Both the position numbers and the translations under genes were made by a program. Shown here piece by piece: positions 2,269 through 10,929 of a DNA stretch of 64,000 nucleotides. How positions within the stretch are numbered: position 1 is the stretch's first letter; each line of letters opens with the position of its first letter. The notes beneath the pieces are model-generated. The model made no database searches. It was not told the DNA's origin and saw only the letters and a list, made by a program, of their open reading frames with translations. Origin of the DNA: Alphaproteobacteria bacterium (GTDB taxonomy: Bacteria; Pseudomonadota; Alphaproteobacteria; UBA828); the NCBI GenBank assembly GCA_965237415.1, contig CBDEFM010000002.1, forward strand, positions 64,001 to 128,000. Direction: 5' to 3'.

Positions 2269-2739
2269 CGCCCGCCTCCTTCTCCGTGGCCGTCCCGTCC
2301 GCCATGTCCTCCGTCGGGTTCGCTGCCGCTTCGAGCAGCAGCGCCGCCAGTATCGGGATTACCGCCCCTCGCATCGCCGGCGTGAGTGCCGGACCCGGCT
2401 CCAGTAGTTCCAACAGCTCTCCCTGTCTTCCCATGTCGCCCTCCCAAATCCATGCGGGAGGGCGATGGTAGAACAGCGTCGATGTCCGAACGGAGGTCGC
2501 GCAGGGCGTCCACCGTAGCGCGATCCGCGGCTGATCCGTCACCGTCATCGCCGCCGCGTCTGGAAAGCACATCCAGGTCGGTATCTGCGCCAGCGTGCCA
2601 TCCGGCTGGCGGACGACGTAGATCATGGTCCCCTTGAAGCGGTGGCGCCGAACCACTTCCACGCGCTGGCCCGTGCGGGGGTGGAAGGGGTAGTGGATCT
2701 TCGTCGGACCGCCCTGGTATCGGGCAGTGTGTGGCTGTT
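2249..2739 (-). pseudogene. Accessory genes of a serine-recombinase element (YPFHP-type small protein, probably frameshifted, then a ~61 aa ORF overlapping the recombinase start)
   Basis: Frame EQPHTARY...IHYPFHPRTGQRVEVVRRHR...QPDGTLAQIPTWM, a motif set usually seen upstream of such recombinases; small ORF 2434-2249. Confidence 0.6.
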
Positions 2740-3363
2740 CCGCCCGGCGCCGGCAAAAGCCATCTTGCCTCTGCCATCGGCCTCGCCCTGGTCGAGAACG
2801 GCTATCGCGTACTCTTCACCCGCACCACCGATCTGGTGCAGCGCCTGCAGGTGGCAAGGCGTGAGCTCGCCCTGGAAAGCCAGCTCGCAAGGCTCGACCG
2901 CTACCATCTTCTGATCCTCGACGACCTCGCCTACGTGCAAAAGGATCAGGCCGAGACCAGCGTCCTCTTCGAGCTCATCTCGGCGCGCTACGAAAGGCGC
3001 TCTCTTCTAATAACCGCGAACCAGCCCTTCGGAGAATGGAACAAGGTGTTCCCGGACGAGACCACTGCGGTGGCCGCCGTCGATCGCCTCGTCCACCACG
3101 CCACAATCCTCGAGATGAACGTCGAGAGCTATCGCCGCCGCGCCGCGCTCGACAGACGAAAAAGGGGACCGGGGCGGCCCGCCAAGATCGCCACCGAGAA
3201 AAACACCACCGAGGACTGAGCCACGCACGGGTGCCGCCCCGGCGGCGCTCACGCTCGCTCCCTGCGGCCCGTCGGCATCTCAGTCGGCGGGCCGCACTTT
3301 ACTCCACGCATCCCGGCCGCAATCCCCCACAGCGATATCGCACCGATCGATCATGCGGACGCT

Positions 3364-3513
3364 CCGCGACAATCTGTGTGTGTCGCGCCGCGACAATCAA
3401 CGAGACGAAGGCCCTTGCAATGCCCGACGCTGCCCGCAATCATGCGCCCGCCGCTGGCGCCGGGAATCTCACCCTGATTGACGCGCGGCTCTCATCCAGA
3501 TCGTCGCGCTATA
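3364..3513 (+). repeat. IS21 right-end repeated transposase-binding motifs
   Basis: CCGCGACAATC at 3364 and 3388; inverted variants TGATTGACGCGC (3475) and GATCGTCGCGC (3499); element probably ends at ~3513. Confidence 0.6.
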
Positions 3514-4115
3514 AGTGGGCTCGGGTGGGGTGAAGAGGCCGTTCGCGCACTGGCGTGCTGTAGCGGCACCCGATGCTAAGCCTGGTCCGAACCATTTTGT
3601 CGCCTCGGTCACTGATGGCGCGGGTTTCCCGCGACCTCGTTGTGTGCCCAGCATGCTCGGTAGCTGGGAAGTGAAAGTCTTCTATCCAACCTGATGGAGG
3701 TGAAGGATTAGCAAAGCGCAAGGGCATCCCCGCGAGGTGGTGTCTGAAGGAAGCGTGGAGCAAAACCGCGACCTGACGAACAGAAACCGGATATGAGGCA
3801 GGCTTGGTCGGACGAGCGGGCAACGGATCGCGAAGTCCATATCCATCAAGGCCAAGTTTGTAGATCCGGCAGGTGTGCGGGGAAGGCGACCGAGCTTACC
3901 TGGGGAGGCCTGTGCCGTGTTCCAAGTCTGGAACTGAGGGAACTGCAAGGGGACCTGATCGCGGCGCAGGAGTCAGCAGACGGCATAGTAGGTCAGGCAG
4001 TCGGCAAAGCTATTTAGGCACTCCAAGGCCGAGAGGTGGAGCAACAGATAAGCCGAGCCGGTAACGATGGCCGAAGGCCTGAACGATTGGAAGCGGCAAG
4101 TAGGACGGACAACTC

Positions 4116-7100
4116 ATGCGTGGAAAGCGGCAGAACATCCAGTACTCACTGGCCTTGGAACTATCTGAGCGGGGTGAAACCCTGGTCGGCGGCTACCAAG
4201 GGACCGAACCACCTGTGGCGAAGCCCGACCCCGAAAGCCCGGCCTTGGCGGAACAGCTAATGGAGGAGATGTGCGGGCGGGAAAATTGCGAAACTGCGTG
4301 GAAGCACGTTCGAAAGAACAAGGGCGGTCCCGGCGTCGATGGGATGACCATCGACGAGGCCGCGGACTACCTGCGTGAGCACTGGCCAAGCATTCGGTCT
4401 CAACTGCTCGACGGAACCCACCAGCCCCAGCCGGTCAAGAGGGTCGAGATACCCAAGCCGGACGGCGGGGTCAGGAAACTCGGCGTCCCCTGTGTCGTCG
4501 ACAGACTGGTCCAGCAAGCCGTGTTGCAGGTTCTTCAGGCGCAATGGGACCCGACGTTTTCCGAACACAGCTACGGGTTCCGCCCGGGGCGCTCGGCCCA
4601 TCAGGCGGTGGCTCAGGCACAAGCGTATATTGCTGAGGGCTACGGTATCGTGGTTGACATCGACCTCGAAAAATTCTTCGACCGTGTCAACCAGGACCGA
4701 CTGATGGCTCGCGTTGCCGAACGGGTCTCCGACAAACGGGTACTCAAGCTGATCCGCGCCTTTCTCAAGGCCGGAGTGATGGAAGACGGGCTGGTTTATC
4801 CGGTTGACGAGGGGACCCCGCAAGGCGGTCCGCTTTCGCCTCTCCTGAGCAATCTCGTGCTCGATGAACTCGACAGGGAACTGACACGACGCGGCCACCG
4901 GTTCTGCCGGTACGCGGATGACTGTGTGCCACGAAGGCACGAGGAGGCTGAGATGATTTAGCCACCGAAGGGCCGTGCTGCACGAGAGATGGGGGTCGGC
5001 CCCCCGGAGCCGCCGTGCAGGCGGAGGCTTCAAACCACCCACTGCTGCTGTGTTCAAGAGACATGGTAGTGAGCGAGTGGGAAAAGGCAGGGCAATACCC
5101 TGTCAGGTAGGGATCGCGGAGTCGAACGCAAGTGAACCACTGTCAACGTGTCGAAAGCGTGTGGACGACGTCAAAACCGAGGGGTAGTCGTTACCTCGGG
5201 ATGAGTTCGGAAGGAACCTGCTTACTGACCGAATGGCGTCCGGCACAAAGGTGGCGAGACCGCGATCCAGGCTCTTCGGAACCTGTCAACGACTTTGAGA
5301 CAGTGACGATTGCGATTTACTGAGCAGTTTCTCCTGTTGTGGGTGTCACAGGTAGGTTGATCCAGACGGCTTGGGGAAGGGGATCCGGTTGTGGGATCCC
5401 TCGAACGAAGCGTTCGGGATGACGGGTCCAGGCGGCTTGAAGGGTCCGCCCGCGCTGCTCCAGCACGCTCTGGGTTCGATTGTGATGCACGTCGTCCGGG
5501 GTGAGCATCGCGATCCCGCCATGGCGATGTTCGGTGTTGTACCAAGGGAAGAACGTTCGGCAGAAGGCGATCGCGGCGGTGATGTCGTGGAAGCGGCCAG
5601 GGAAGCCGGGGTGGTACTTCAGGGTCTTGAACTGCGCCTCGGAGAAGGGGTTGTCGTCGGACACCTGAGGGCGGCTCAGTGAACGGGTCACGCCGAGGTC
5701 GGCGAGCAGTTGTGCGGTGCACTTGCTCGTCATCGGCGCGCCGCGGTCGGAGTGCAGGGTGAGCACCTGGGGCTGGACGCCCTGTTTGTGGCAGGTCTCT
5801 TCGATGAGACGACCGGCCAGCGCCGAGTTCTCCCGGTCTGCGACCATCCAGCCGACCGCGTAGCGGCTGAAGATGTCGAGCACGACGTAGAGGTAGAAGT
5901 ACGTCCACTTGGTCGGCCCCAACAGCTTGGTGATGTCCCAGGACCAGGTCTGGTTCGGCGCCGTGGCCACCAGCTCGGGCTTGATGTACTGGGGATGCTC
6001 GCGCTGATTGCGCCGCTCTCGGACCGGCTGATCGGCGGCCAGGATCCGATACATCGTCCGCTCCGAGCACAGGTAATGGCCTTCGTCGAGCAGCGTCGCC
6101 ACGACCTCCGCCGGCGCACGGTCGACGAAGCGCGGGCCGGCGAGCACATCGAGGATCTGCTCGCGCTCGGCTTCACACAGCGCCCGGGCGGGCGTTGGAC
6201 GGGGCTGCCGGTGCCCGGGAGTTGACCTCTGACGACGGTAGAAGGTCGCCCGTGACACGCCCAGTGCTTGGCAGGCCGGCGCCACGCCGACCTGCGCCGC
6301 AAGCGGTTGGACCGCGATCAAGAGCGCGTTCCGTGTTCGAGGTTCAATCCCAGCAGCCCGGCAACTTTTCCCTGCACGTCCAGGATCGTGTGCGCGGTGT
6401 GCAACTCGTGCTCCAGGCGAGCCACTTGCGCCTCGAGCGCGCGCACCTTCGCATCCAGCGGGTTGCGTTCGGCCGGTTTCGCGCCGCGCTTCTTCGCGGC
6501 CAACTCCCGCAGCGAGCCCTTGCGCCGCGCCTTGCGCCAAGCCGTCAGATGCGAGCTGTACAACCCCTCGCGGCGAAGCAGGCGGCCCACCTCGCCGGGC
6601 TGTGTGCAGCGATCCGCCTCCTCCAGAATCCGCAGCCGATACTCTGCGGTGAACTGGCGCCGCTTCGGCTTGGCCACAACCTCCGGGTCCGGGGTCGGTC
6701 TGGCGCGGCCGGCCCTGGGGGCCTCGTCGCTACGCTCCTCGACCCCCAGGGCCGGAACGGAAACCTCATTCAATGTCATCGAGTCTCTCTCTGCGGTCAT
6801 CGGTTTTCACCTCCGCCGCCCTACAGAAATTCCAAAGGTTGCTGGTGTCTCAGTGATGTTGGCAGAGAGGGCTTGTGCGGAACGTGGGAACCTGTCGCTT
6901 CGATGCCAAGGAAGAACCGCAAGTGGAGGCCCCACGAGCGGGAGAGTACCGATGCGGAGCACAGGGGCGGAGCGACCCGTAGTAGCGATGAAAGTTCTGT
7001 AATGGGGCTGGAGCGAAGGGGTTGCCCTATGCGGTTCGGGAAGTCGGGGCAACCGGCGACGGGAGGACCTTGATGGACCGGACGAAGCCGTTTCCCATCA

Positions 7101-8969
7101 GCAAACGTCAGGTCTGGGAAGCCTGGAAGAAGGTGAAAGCCAATCAGGGTGGGGCGGGGATTGACGGCCAGGCAATAGAAGCGTTCGAGGCCAAGGTTGG
7201 AGACAACCTGTACATGCTTTGGAACCGCATGGCGTCGGGCAGTTATCATCCGTCTCCGGTTCGACGAGTTGAGATTCCCAAGGCGGACGGCGGCGTTCGT
7301 CCGCTGGGGATACCAACGGTGGAGGATCGGGTAGCCCAAACGGTGGTGAAAGAGGTACTGGAGCCGGAACTGGAAAAACACTTTCATTCGGACTCCTACG
7401 GCTATCGGCCGGGGAAATCGGCTCACCAGGCACTGGGGCAGGCGCGAGAGCGCTGCTGGCGAAGTGACTGGGTGCTGGATCTCGATATCAGGTCGTTTTT
7501 CGACACGTTGGATCACGACCTGCTGCTTCGCGCAGTGCGCCGCCACACCGACGAGAACTGGGTGGTGCTGTATATCGAGAGGTGGCTGAAGGCCCCGGTA
7601 ATGCTGCCGAGCGGGGAGGTAGAAGAGCGGGATCGAGGCACGCCCCAAGGGGGTGTCGCAAGTCCGTTGCTTGCCAACCTGTTCCTGCATTATGTGTTCG
7701 ATTTGTGGATGGAGAGGCACTACCCGGCCATCCCGTTCGAGCGTTATGCCGACGATATCGTCTGCCATTGTCGCAGTGAGCGGCAGGCACACCATCTGAA
7801 GGGCGCACTGACACGTCGCTTTGAAGCCTGCGGGCTCGCGCTGCACCGGGAGAAGACGAAGATTGTCTACTGCCAGGACAGCGATCGACGAGGGAAGCAC
7901 CCCGTAACATCCTTTGACTTCCTGGGCTACACGTTTCGGCCCCGGCGGTCGAAGAACAAGTGGGGCGGGTTTTTCGTCAGTTTTAGTCCGGCGATCAGCA
8001 ACAAGGCGGCGAGAGCGATTCGGCGGGAAATCAGGAGTTGGAATCTGCATCGACGCAGTGACAAGAGCCTTGACGACCTTGCCCGAATGTTCAACGCAAC
8101 CATCAGGGGGTGGATCAACTATTACGGGGCCTTTTACAAGTCGACCCTCTTTGCCCCCTTGCGGATGATCGACAGGAGGCTCGCGCTTTGGGCCACGCGC
8201 AAGATGAAGCGTTTTCGGGCGCATCGGAGACGCGCTGCGCAATGGGTTGCCGACTGTGTTCGCCGGGACCCTAACCTGTTCGCACATTGGCGCGTTATTT
8301 ATCGTACGGCTGCATAGGAGGAGCCGTGTGAGCCGAGAGGTTCAAGCACGGTTCTGTGAGCGCCTCGGGGTGAGATTCCCCGGGGCGACTCGACGTAACA
8401 TCTACGTCCGCAGCCAGCGCGCCGGCGAACGTGTCATGGCCTCCGTGGCCAGGTTCCTGACCACGACGCTACGGCTCAAGGTCAACGAGTCAAAGAGCGC
8501 GGTCGCGCGACCGGAGGAGCGCAAGTTCCTGGGGTTCAGCATCGCGAATGATGGGAGCGAACGGCGCATCGCGCCGCAAGCTCTCGCGAAGTTCAAGGCG
8601 CGAATTCGGGACCTCACAAGCCGGACGCGGGGAATAAGTCTGCACCGGATGATCGAAACGCTAAAGCCATACCTGATGGGCTGGCGCGGCTACTTCGGTT
8701 TCTGCCAGACCCCGCGCGTGCTCACGAACCTGGAAGCGTGGATACGCCGAAGACTGCGTGCGTATCTGTGGCGACAGTGGAACAACGGTCACAAACGCTT
8801 CAAGGAGCTCCGCCGCCGGGGACTCTCAAAGGACCAAGCCGCCATCGCCGCTGGCTCGCCGACGGCGTACTGGCGCATGGCCGGACATGTGGTGGTCCAG
8901 CAGGCCCTACGCAACCACCATTTCGACTCGCTCGGCCTCCCCAGACTCTACACCCCTGCTGCGGCCTAA
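4116..8969 (+). CDS. ltrA: Class C group II intron reverse transcriptase/maturase, split (4116-4923 + 8395-8969; 460 aa when rejoined)
   Basis: GPGVDG, IPKPDGGVRKLG, SYGFRPGRS, GTPQGGPLSPLL; the rejoined junction GAC T|GT AAC reads YADDCNIYVRS in frame; GWRGYF maturase motif. Confidence 0.93.
5317..6321 (-). CDS. IS3-type OrfB DDE (rve) transposase
   Basis: PNQTWSWDITKL, LDIFSRY, LHSDRG, DNPFSEAQFKTLK; overlaps the OrfA stop; exact start uncertain (frameshift or coupling). Confidence 0.9.
   Translation of the reverse strand: MIAVQPLAAQVGVAPACQALGVSRATFYRRQRSTPGHRQPRPTPARALCEAEREQILDVLAGPRFVDRAPAEVVATLLDEGHYLCSERTMYRILAADQPVRERRNQREHPQYIKPELVATAPNQTWSWDITKLLGPTKWTYFYLYVVLDIFSRYAVGWMVADRENSALAGRLIEETCHKQGVQPQVLTLHSDRGAPMTSKCTAQLLADLGVTRSLSRPQVSDDNPFSEAQFKTLKYHPGFPGRFHDITAAIAFCRTFFPWYNTEHRHGGIAMLTPDDVHHNRTQSVLEQRGRTLQAAWTRHPERFVRGIPQPDPLPQAVWINLPVTPTTGETAQ
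6318..6800 (-). CDS. IS3-type OrfA (HTH)
   Basis: DPEVVAKPKRRQFTAEYRLRILEEAD...LLRREGLYSSHL. Confidence 0.85.
   Translation of the reverse strand: MTAERDSMTLNEVSVPALGVEERSDEAPRAGRARPTPDPEVVAKPKRRQFTAEYRLRILEEADRCTQPGEVGRLLRREGLYSSHLTAWRKARRKGSLRELAAKKRGAKPAERNPLDAKVRALEAQVARLEHELHTAHTILDVQGKVAGLLGLNLEHGTRS
7073..8317 (+). CDS. ltrA: Class D group II intron RT/maturase, intact ORF, no endonuclease domain
   Basis: KPFPISKRQVWEAWKKVKANQG, LWNRMASGSY, GTPQGGVASPLLANLFLHY, FERYADD, GWINYYG. Confidence 0.95.
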   Translation: MDRTKPFPISKRQVWEAWKKVKANQGGAGIDGQAIEAFEAKVGDNLYMLWNRMASGSYHPSPVRRVEIPKADGGVRPLGIPTVEDRVAQTVVKEVLEPELEKHFHSDSYGYRPGKSAHQALGQARERCWRSDWVLDLDIRSFFDTLDHDLLLRAVRRHTDENWVVLYIERWLKAPVMLPSGEVEERDRGTPQGGVASPLLANLFLHYVFDLWMERHYPAIPFERYADDIVCHCRSERQAHHLKGALTRRFEACGLALHREKTKIVYCQDSDRRGKHPVTSFDFLGYTFRPRRSKNKWGGFFVSFSPAISNKAARAIRREIRSWNLHRRSDKSLDDLARMFNATIRGWINYYGAFYKSTLFAPLRMIDRRLALWATRKMKRFRAHRRRAAQWVADCVRRDPNLFAHWRVIYRTAA

Positions 8970-9120
8970 TTCGGTCGAACCGCCGTGGTACGGACCCGTA
9001 TGCCCGGTGGTGTGGGAGGGGCGGCATCGTGAGATGCCCCCCTATCCCGATCAAGAGAATGGGACTTCGAACATGGTTCCTCCCCGCTCGCGACGGAGAT
9101 GAAACCTGGGAGGATGTTCC

Positions 9121-10539
9121 ATGGCGCGCAAGTCTCGAAGAACCCAGCGCCTCAGGGTGGTGAACCCGGACTGCGCAGGGATCGACATCGGCAAGGACCG
9201 GCATTTCGTGGCGGTCGACCCGGAACGCACCGAGGAGCCGGTGCGTTCGTTCGGCGCCTTTACCCGCGATCTGGAGGAGATGGCGGCGTGGCTAGCGTCG
9301 TGTGGGGTGACCAAGGTGGCGATGGAATCGACCTCGGTCTACTGGATAGCGGTCTACGAGACGCTGGAGCGCGCGGGCTTCGAGGTGATGCTGGTGCCGC
9401 CGCGCATGACGAAGCAGATCGGCGGGCGCAAGAGCGACGTGTTGGACTGCCAGTGGATCTGGCAGCTGATGTCCTACGGCCTGCTGCGGGGAGCGTTCCG
9501 TCCGGGCGACGAGGTTTGCCCGCTGCGCTCCTACGCACGCCAGATGAGGCGGCTGACCGGGGACCGCTCCCGCTGCGTCCTGCACATGCAGAAGGCGCTG
9601 ACCGAGATGAACGTCAAGCTCGACTCGGTGATCGCCAACATCGTGGGACTGACCGGCCAGCGCATCCTGCGCGCGATCATCGACGGCGAGCGTGACCCAG
9701 AGCGCCTGGCGACGCTCCGCCACCGGGGCATCAAGGCCGACGCCGATACGATCGCCGCGAGCCTTCAGGGGACGTGGCGTGAGGAGCATCTGTTCGCCCT
9801 CGAACAGGCCATGCAGCGCTACGACTTCCTGACCCAGCAGATCGACGACTGCGAGGCCCGGGTGATGGCCGAGATCGAGCGCCTGACACCGCCGGACGAT
9901 CTCCCGGACGGCGGCGCACCGGACCATGCCCCCGGCACGACCTCCGAAACCGCGTCGAGCCGCTCTGCGAACGCCGCAAGCAACTACACCGGCAAGGAGG
10001 GCATCCAGGCCCTGGCGTTGCGCGGAATGATGGGCGTCGACCTCACCGCGATCCCCACCATCGGTCCCGGTACCGCACTGGTGATCGCCTCGGAGATCGG
10101 CCCGGACTTCTCCGCCTTCCCCTCCGCCCAGCACTTCTGCTCCTGGCTTGCGCTCGCGCCGGGAACCAGGATCAGCGGCGGCAAGAACCTCCCCGGCAAG
10201 TCCCCGAAGGCGGTCAACCCCGTCGGGCAGGCCCTGCGCATGGCGGCCATGGCCGCGCGCCGCAGCGAGACCTTCATCGGCGCCAAGCACCGCGCAAGGC
10301 TCGCCCGAATGGACACCCCCGTTGCGATCAAGGCGACCGCCCGCGAACTCGCCTGCCTGATCTACCTCATGGTGACCGAAGGCCAGAAATACGTCGAGCA
10401 GGGCATCGACGCCTACGAGAAGCGGCGCCTCAACAGAAAGTTCGCTCATCTCGACCGCCAAGCCCGAAAACTCGGGCTCCAACTCGTCCCGGCACCGCAA
10501 AACGACGAAACGCAAAACTCAATGCCGTCAACTGCTTAG
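9121..10539 (+). CDS. IS110-family transposase (bridge recombinase), intact
   Basis: RuvC-like DEDD motifs AGIDIG, AMEST, KSDVLDC; C-terminal IPTIG...LAPGTRISGGK (serine motif); ATARELA. Confidence 0.95.
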   Translation: MARKSRRTQRLRVVNPDCAGIDIGKDRHFVAVDPERTEEPVRSFGAFTRDLEEMAAWLASCGVTKVAMESTSVYWIAVYETLERAGFEVMLVPPRMTKQIGGRKSDVLDCQWIWQLMSYGLLRGAFRPGDEVCPLRSYARQMRRLTGDRSRCVLHMQKALTEMNVKLDSVIANIVGLTGQRILRAIIDGERDPERLATLRHRGIKADADTIAASLQGTWREEHLFALEQAMQRYDFLTQQIDDCEARVMAEIERLTPPDDLPDGGAPDHAPGTTSETASSRSANAASNYTGKEGIQALALRGMMGVDLTAIPTIGPGTALVIASEIGPDFSAFPSAQHFCSWLALAPGTRISGGKNLPGKSPKAVNPVGQALRMAAMAARRSETFIGAKHRARLARMDTPVAIKATARELACLIYLMVTEGQKYVEQGIDAYEKRRLNRKFAHLDRQARKLGLQLVPAPQNDETQNSMPSTA

Positions 10540-10929
10540 GCAACTGTTACTCAAGAGCGCGCTTTGTTGACCCCCCGCAATCCAGCCAGATCATTGGGTT
10601 ACCGCGCCGATCGGCACCGAACCCGTGCGCCGATCAACAGTCGATCCCTCGCCGGAGACCGTCGAACACTATCGCGTCCAGGTTCGAACCTATCTCGACA
10701 TGACCGGCGCCGACCGGGGCTTGATCGTCATGATGACCGGCGGGAGGGTCGTCGAAATCCGTGGCCAGGGATGACGGATATAAGGCGGTGGGAGCGTGAC
10801 AGCTTCCGGGGGCGGAGATCGCTCTCGCGAGGCCCGGCGAGCGGAGAACGGATGAAGCGGCGGTGATCGTGGCAAGCCAGGTGAGAGCCAGCTAAATTGG
10901 TTTCCACACCAGAGACGGGCGACGGAAGA

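Follow-up and report, generated by a model that had tools for sequence, protein, structure and literature searches.

Introduction

Group II introns that home into an insertion sequence (IS) and block it are known, as exemplified by RmInt1, which splices little and blocks its IS, ISRm2011-2 (PMC5894124). Introns of the IIC class follow a simple rule in the choice of their sites, for which a hairpin and 3–4 bp suffice (PMC7923331; PMC1702495), and their exon ligation has been reported to be accurate in vivo, with reference to unpublished data (PMC1702495). Elements of the IS110 family rely on a bridge RNA: in IS622 the target and donor loops function as separate RNAs (10.1101/2025.05.14.653916), the excision complex of IS621 uses both loops (PMC13626964), and a cell-free study found donor-only recognition to be enough for excision (10.64898/2026.08.31.748434). 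Here we describe a locus at which the two systems meet. In a stretch of 64,000 nucleotides from an Alphaproteobacteria bacterium (genome G000; assembly GCA_965237415.1, contig CBDEFM010000002.1, positions 64,001 to 128,000), referred to as the window, a group IIC intron lies inside the bridge RNA of an IS110 element, an arrangement of marine-sponge bacteria that is real, recurrent and apparently unreported. Judged by comparison with related sequences, the interrupted RNA is a genuine IS110 bridge RNA, the donor-loop guide of which is split by the intron.

The two exons are parts of one bridge RNA

The IS110 gene of the window (9121–10539; this and all other features lie on the forward strand unless stated) is an open frame of 472 aa for a recombinase with DEDD and Tnp20 domains (PF01548 and PF02371, NF033542), preceded in intact copies by a long non-coding left end of 272 nt. 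The original prediction placed a sense-oriented intron at 3642–9051 within this leader, and the claim that it interrupts a bridge RNA is upheld by contiguous intron-free homologues and by guides that covary with targets and donor end. With the transposase as query, 159 loci were obtained, being the best 80 of each of two scans. The rejoined leader is matched across the junction CTCGTT|CAAGAG by intron-free IS110 copies: among the matches listed are 24 loci of a single genome, 97.8% identical over 274 nt, together with junction-spanning elements of other genomes at 83–95% and about 69–76%. The 5′ exon (3514–3641), which is what remains of the IS110 left end and contains the complete target-binding loop along with the 5′ portion of the donor-binding loop, is 96.8% identical to the intron-free locus L003. 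By comparison with these homologues, precise splicing would yield exactly the native RNA sequence.

Alignment of 26 leaders, chosen as distinct, resolves a closing stem that joins the RNA ends and two loops, one for the target and one for the donor. Two short consensus helices inside the donor loop were left out before pairs were counted; in the 32 pairs that were scored, 98.3% of cells are paired and 11 pairs show two-sided changes, a number reached by none of 500 shuffles and compared with 0–4 in slid controls, and because the structure was derived from this same alignment the test leans towards it. The helix foreseen across the intron, between GAACCAT (3589–3595, 5′ arm of the donor-loop outer stem) and ATGGTTC (9073–9079), is conserved in the 26 homologues: 99.5% of its cells are paired and four of its seven pairs show two-sided changes.

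The guides agree with the DNA that they would recognize. Positions 3573–3580 (ATGCTA-AG) form the left-target guide with the core; over 21 elements they agree with the left target and its core at 99 of 105 bases, and over the 16 pairs that are unique at 74 of 80, where shuffles average 25.7 and never exceed 52. The segment 3542–3549 is antisense to the DNA that follows the AG core on its right side, for which it predicts CGCG, the flank observed; in 30 unique pairs it matches the right target at 60 of 120 positions (shuffle mean 33.7), and none of 100,000 shuffles reaches 60. As guide and target rows are related, the shuffle counts overstate significance. The 3′ strand of the donor loop matches the element's own right end at 7–8 of 8 positions in 26 of 28 elements (5–6 of 8 in open reading frame (ORF) controls), and the donor guide changes together with the right end in L032, L042, L079 and L086. 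In the window this guide is cut at T|CAAG-AG, the first matching base being the last T of the 5′ exon and the remainder with the core (9052–9057) standing at the start of the 3′ exon (9052–9085), followed by the 3′ arm of the donor-loop stem and the closing stem; the target loop stays whole. The original prediction had matched this loop to a circle junction: its TCAAG-AG does agree with the right end, TTACTCAAG-AG, and its CACT is without a match.

Several observations weigh against this reconstruction. No right-donor-half guide was found in the left-end leaders, where, judged by eye alone, the left-end sequence is variable while the 5′ donor-loop strand is conserved. Single-sequence folds of the joined exons do not yield two open loops, and a hand-built model of the joined exons, with one stem mis-registered, reaches −31 kcal/mol against −59 kcal/mol for the minimum free energy structure. 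The two guide loops proposed for the rejoined leader are backed by the comparative alignment and its covariation and not by single-sequence folding. A search of Rfam gave no model matching the bridge RNA, and no sigma-70 promoter was found at 3200–4300.

The interrupting element is a group IIC intron

The outer intron starts with GTGTG at 3642 and finishes with CCCGAT at 9051, boundaries that agree with those proposed; the interval is not a single intron, since it contains an inner intron (4924–8394) that itself holds an IS3 element (5277–6871). Rfam model group-II D1D4-3 (RF02001) matches at 3726–3895 with 140 bits. Minus the inner insertion the outer intron measures 1,939 nt and differs at three of them from the uninterrupted copy at locus L026, which codes for a 460-aa reverse transcriptase (RT)/maturase. 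A shortened domain V with a CGC triad is the hallmark of class IIC, and domain V of the outer intron (8979–9011) is shortened, with a CGC triad and a 3-bp upper helix. Exon-binding site 1 (EBS1), AACG at 3822–3825, is the exact complement of intron-binding site 1 (IBS1), CGTT at 3638–3641, and a 6-bp hairpin, the inner hairpin of the donor loop (hairpin and IBS1 together 3617–3641), stands 4 nt upstream of IBS1. Class, EBS1:IBS1 pairing and the location just after the donor-loop hairpin had all been anticipated, the last in keeping with the hairpin-plus-IBS1 rule. EBS1 is exactly complementary to IBS1 in 9 of the 15 introns in which the loop was located.

The outer RT falls among the terminator-targeting class C RTs, with 41–64% identity to those of terminator-sited introns; other RT matches in G000 reach only 30–39%. 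The underlying tree has 28 rows, a partly open backbone and no named reference introns, its site labels being assigned from inspected flanks; one row, L270, belongs to the unpublished genome G298 and carries none of the central claims. In a separate genome, G005, a IIC intron of about 500 nt with an internal deletion and both ends kept was noticed after a terminator (L193:1501–2001, reverse strand).

The same site is occupied in three genomes

A near-identical intron sits at the same base in three genomes, G000, G061 (L026) and G013 (L192), and in three IS haplotypes. In L026 the IS::intron composite is complete: both ends of the IS are present, and neither RT nor transposase is damaged. It lies on contig C11 of a metagenome-assembled genome titled Dehalococcoidia; the Chloroflexota label of this contig rests on that title, and its neighbours are other IS elements. 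Locus L003 is an intron-free twin of L026 with an identical 5′ exon. At L192 only the 5′ 409 nt of the intron are present. Over these 409 nt the introns of the three carriers differ at 0–1 position, and the 5′ exons at 3–7 of about 120 nt; likewise, window and L026 differ at 3 of 1,939 nt in the intron and at 54 of 1,506 in the 3′ part of the IS. Because the same site is used in three genomes, insertion into the bridge RNA is more than a one-off.

Across all loci, which overlap, the site occurs 158 times empty and 14 times occupied, the latter corresponding to three places; five genomes harbour 56, 7, 4, 11 and 28 empty sites each. No further carrier was found in 150 relatives of G061, in 81 genomes around G067 or in 401 genomes of the class and 401 of the phylum, and no new one in 49 genomes of the order or in the viral contigs and plasmids searched. 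A junction-pattern search of 30 genomes returned 12 matches, namely three intron junctions and nine unrelated sequences. The stretch was found in 20 public runs from 11 studies, and those labelled by habitat are sponge metagenomes. The exon joint is present in all four sponge runs examined, and contigs across the 5′ junction in three of them, from two studies; occupied and empty forms occur together in these runs.

Origin of the site preference

In the RT tree the outer intron falls into a 100/100 group with introns from rhizobia and elsewhere that share 75–82% identity and lie at IS91-type ends. On five rhizobial plasmids, every one of the 12 clade copies whose 5′ end is visible follows a short GC hairpin and TT(C/A)GT(T/C/G). 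Ten of them, as well as L267 and L338, have an IS91-type integrase gene at a distance of about 100 bp. Junctions of the form GTT|CAA, like that of the bridge site, occur in three sister introns (L246, L247 and L249). The site of the sister introns is presumably the terIS end of IS91. More distant relatives sit mostly after terminators, among the matches listed, and G000 has no close IS91-type element. Across this particular IS110 family the site, a GC hairpin with a 4-nt spacer and CGTT|C, is nearly invariant and often multicopy. The intron lineage thus looks like a specialist for hairpins of mobile elements that may have moved to a look-alike site. As an observation in its own right, a IIC clade resides at one end of IS91-type elements (integrase plus transposase) in rhizobia and beyond (L246–L249, L283–L294, L267, L338); a literature search by title only found no paper on it.

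The broader proposal that bridge-RNA hairpins constitute a IIC target class is not supported: a single lineage was found there, and a survey of related IIC introns for IS110 leaders leads to a sister clade at IS91-type ends instead. A plasmid of Skermanella TT6 (L252) was considered as a second case and rejected, as its intron lies in the right end of an IS110, outside the conserved left-end RNA. This is a different IIC intron (RT 59% identical), 125 nt after the IS110 stop codon, where a 91% intron-free twin is continuous; in that IS110 family the conserved RNA-like region with a donor-matching motif is the left end, and three homologues have no right-end structure. A general target class is therefore not established, since the only other IIC intron found in an IS110 lies outside the bridge RNA. 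The Skermanella IS110 right end is itself unusually long and strongly folding (z = −5.5; L252:2873–3000 and 4829–4930, L254:3977–4190).

Splicing

As evidence of splicing the public runs were set aside: the exon joint is also present in a DNA run, all four runs are contigs, and RNA is without enrichment. Depths in the DNA run are 34 for the junction and 22.8 for the joint, and in the RNA of the same sample 10.9 and 5.17, depth being no measure of copy number. Because the joint exists as DNA, its appearance in RNA says nothing for or against splicing. The suggestion that splicing frees the ribosome-binding site of the transposase was likewise discarded, the site being predicted as paired in both spliced and unspliced forms.

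Weighing the explanations

The explanation that we regard as likely is that a IIC intron of the IS91-end clade adopted the IS110 donor loop as a homing site, spreads mainly by retrohoming and by default dampens the IS. An intron of a clade normally found at IS91-type ends would have taken the donor-binding loop of an IS110 bridge-RNA gene as its homing site and would spread mainly by retrohoming into empty IS copies. It would be co-transcribed with the bridge RNA from the IS promoter, and the precursor would have lost the function of the donor loop while retaining a whole target loop. Only through splicing, or with the help of an empty copy, would an occupied element consequently have a functional donor loop; complementation in trans could operate because the loops of IS622 work as separate RNAs. 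Dampening of the IS, as RmInt1 does to ISRm2011-2, would be the default effect, with the window copy as a decayed example. The pattern of carriers points to repeated homing into different IS haplotypes, which fits better than clonal spread of one composite, and homing is favoured over riding on the IS because sequence differences between copies are far fewer in the intron than in the IS hosts. Some facts count against this view: the carrier sample amounts to three, from one habitat; homologous recombination between IS copies could also shift the intron between haplotypes; about 100 near-identical RT sequences (clusters of 21 and 78, out of roughly 170 members in clusters of 21, 78, 70 and 4) have flanking DNA outside this comparison; and G000 contains 1,224 hairpin + CGTT|C sites, 47 of them with CGTT|CAA, all empty. 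Since these 47 are empty, the hairpin and IBS1 rule alone is insufficient.

The divergence of the IS hosts also bears on a tentative alternative, a splicing-dependent composite: splicing would be efficient enough for an intact IS::intron unit to leave and enter DNA by means of the ligated bridge RNA that it makes itself, the IS thereby carrying the intron along and transposing only as far as splicing allows. Such a unit exists in complete form in L026, with both IS ends, RT and transposase; G061 showed no second copy of either the IS or the intron, the composite was not found in the 150 relatives searched, and the reported accuracy of IIC exon ligation in vivo (PMC1702495, citing unpublished data) would suit it. 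IS hosts far more divergent than the introns argue otherwise, as do the lack of any genome seen with two composite copies, the joined form not being enriched in RNA over same-sample DNA (5.17:10.9 versus 22.8:34) and the position of L026 in an IS-dense island, where it could be cargo. It is similarly doubtful, though conceivable, that the guide RNA is a naturally spliced one: intact carriers, L026 among them, would possess a donor guide only after splicing, recombination would be switched on by splicing, and the intron would home into empty IS copies and move between phyla in the IS circle. A single chance insertion with no site preference, which homologous recombination or gene conversion then carried from one IS haplotype to another, appears unlikely. 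It is compatible with the modest needs of IIC introns, hairpin and 3–4 bp only (PMC7923331; PMC1702495), and with the mosaic nature of L026, the leader of which is identical to the L003 type over 203 nt and the 3′ part 97%. Against it, the near-identical intron occurs at no other site in the genomes searched, EBS1 matches exactly, the intron is intact in L026, and sponge contigs run unbroken from exon into intron, with only 30 exon letters, one short of the match threshold. An assembly artefact joining repeats, finally, is largely refuted and highly improbable: the region is dense in mobile elements and no contig of the four sponge runs spans the whole stretch, but the same junctions recur in two other independently assembled genomes and the 5′ junction contigs come from three runs of two studies.

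Architecture and state of the window copy

Four elements are nested in the interval: the IS110 contains the outer group IIC intron, which contains an inner group II intron, which contains an IS3-family element. The 5′ part of the outer intron (3642–4923; RF02001, RVT_1, 99.8% to L026) includes the start of the RT ORF at 4116. It is followed, after the YADD codons of the outer RT, by the inner intron (4924–8394; RF01999, RF00029, TIGR04416), a twintron arrangement, with its own RT ORF within 7022–8317. The IS3-family element (5277–6871, reverse strand; NF033516) lies in the 5′ region of the inner intron, with a CTT duplication on its flanks. The 3′ part of the outer intron (8395–9051; 100% to L026, GIIM match) comprises the remainder of the RT/maturase to 8969, domain V and domain VI. 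The joint 4923–8395, free of the inner intron, is present in all four sponge runs, L026 likewise lacks that intron, and the IS3-free joint 5273–6872 is seen in sponge runs as well. G000 accommodates one copy of the outer intron and one close copy of the IS110. Members of the outer RT's cluster with 281 aa (P0257 on seven contigs, P0268 on two) have the length of the window's shortened ORF (4116–4961), and the twintron form may be common to several assemblies.

Intact IS110 copies begin with AG-CCTCCACC, 272 nt before the ATG and 74 nt upstream of the position corresponding to 3514, and tandem copies give the circle junction TTACTCAAG-AG-CCTCCACC. The window leader consists of the last 197 nt only. 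An IS21-like remnant (IstB) and its end (2731–3513; IstB_IS21 domain match) replace the true left 74 nt with core, right-donor half and subterminal repeat; positions 3300–3513 are identical at two other places of G000, where the IS21-like end terminates at that base too, and a search of G000 for the lost 74 nt gave no match. The AG at 3514, taken in the original prediction for the IS110 core, is therefore internal to the leader, and the circle junction ACTCAAG-AG-TG deduced from it was wrong because the left 74 nt were lost at the IS21-like end. A mobile copy should have both ends: L026 has them and the window copy does not. The latter is probably dead, since its left end is missing, its RT is split and no other RT in G000 is close to it; with left end lost and RT split it can show neither guide function in vivo nor riding on the IS.

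At its right end the IS110 retains the left-donor half and AG core, GTTACTCAAG-AG (10546–10557), followed by the right half of the target, a miniature repeat of about 84 bp (10558–10639) that is a frequent insertion target of this IS110 lineage. Six other copies of it occur in G000 at 76–92%, and several IS110 homologues share the target. The preferred site is the end of the repeat, TGTTGTT...AACAACA (also at G000 C2:3412322, C1:283207 and others), related ends of which continue into longer elements in L011 and L192; we assume that the repeat may be an IS21-derived miniature inverted-repeat transposable element. For IS110 of the L026/L003 type a suitable target would read TGTTGTTA-AG-CRCGC. 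At 3576 the target guide of the window has C, compared with T in sponge contigs and most homologues, and one G000 copy of the target repeat has a matching TGCTA flank.

Further features of this IS110 family were recorded. In L003, L032, L033, L038, L044, L046 and L064 the ends share a subterminal inverted repeat (AGTAAC/GTTACT or AGTAAAA/TTTTACT) that covaries; it is situated about 40 nt inward of the left terminus and is gone from the window copy. The element inserts into its own left-target guide DNA (GATGTTA-AG-CCTGG) at L001:3869, L009:3667–3733 and L013:5436, and occurs in head-to-tail arrays that repeat every 1,707 bp. At right junctions of L046–L052, L062, L066, L069 and L080, (AG)n runs of up to about 12 units take the place of the single AG core, which suggests repeated core duplication.

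Comparison with known systems

An intron inside a bridge or seek RNA is not described in the literature searched, which mostly did not include subscription papers and supplements that may list the clade or interrupted elements; the one paper with all three key terms uses each separately in its available part (10.64898/2026.10.21.760802), and the main text of another does not contain the word intron (10.64898/2026.08.14.744561). The locus represents a natural, recurring case in which one mobile element targets the most conserved part of another's RNA-guided machinery. Even with poor splicing, it would amount to a retroelement disabling the donor loop, which is reported to be sufficient to drive excision (10.64898/2026.08.31.748434). 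L026 and L003, with their identical 5′ exon, form a natural test pair and a model for splicing-gated bridge recombinases.

RmInt1 in ISRm2011-2 of Sinorhizobium meliloti (PMC5894124) is alike in that a group II intron has a multicopy IS as natural homing site, its low splicing blocking the spread of the IS. It differs in being a IIB3/class D intron in an IS630-family host, whereas here a IIC intron occupies a non-coding guide RNA, inside a guide. Terminator-sited and attC-sited IIC introns (PMC7923331; PMC1702495) share the stem-loop, the 4-bp IBS1/EBS1 pairing with IBS3 and the CGC triad. They sit outside functional transcripts, where exon ligation and its accuracy are thought to be unimportant; in the present case the exons are halves of one functional guide RNA, and accurate splicing therefore has a selectable output.

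The bridge RNAs of IS621 and IS622 (PMC11208160; 10.1101/2025.05.14.653916) resemble the interrupted RNA as left-end non-coding RNAs with target and donor loops, guides that include a 2-nt core, and covariation with targets. Compared with them, the window family has the core AG on the coding strand (CT on the other), an antisense guide 5′ of the same-sense guide and a long closing stem; no right-donor guide was found in it, and the main text of PMC11208160 does not contain the word intron. IStrons (10.1101/2023.11.20.567912) also unite a self-splicing intron and a guide RNA in one mobile unit, with splicing and guide coupled. In IStrons, however, intron and mobile element are one and the same, a group I intron that coincides in extent with an IS605/IS607 element, and splicing and guide are in competition, while at this locus a separate group II guest resides in an IS110 host and splicing would create the guide.

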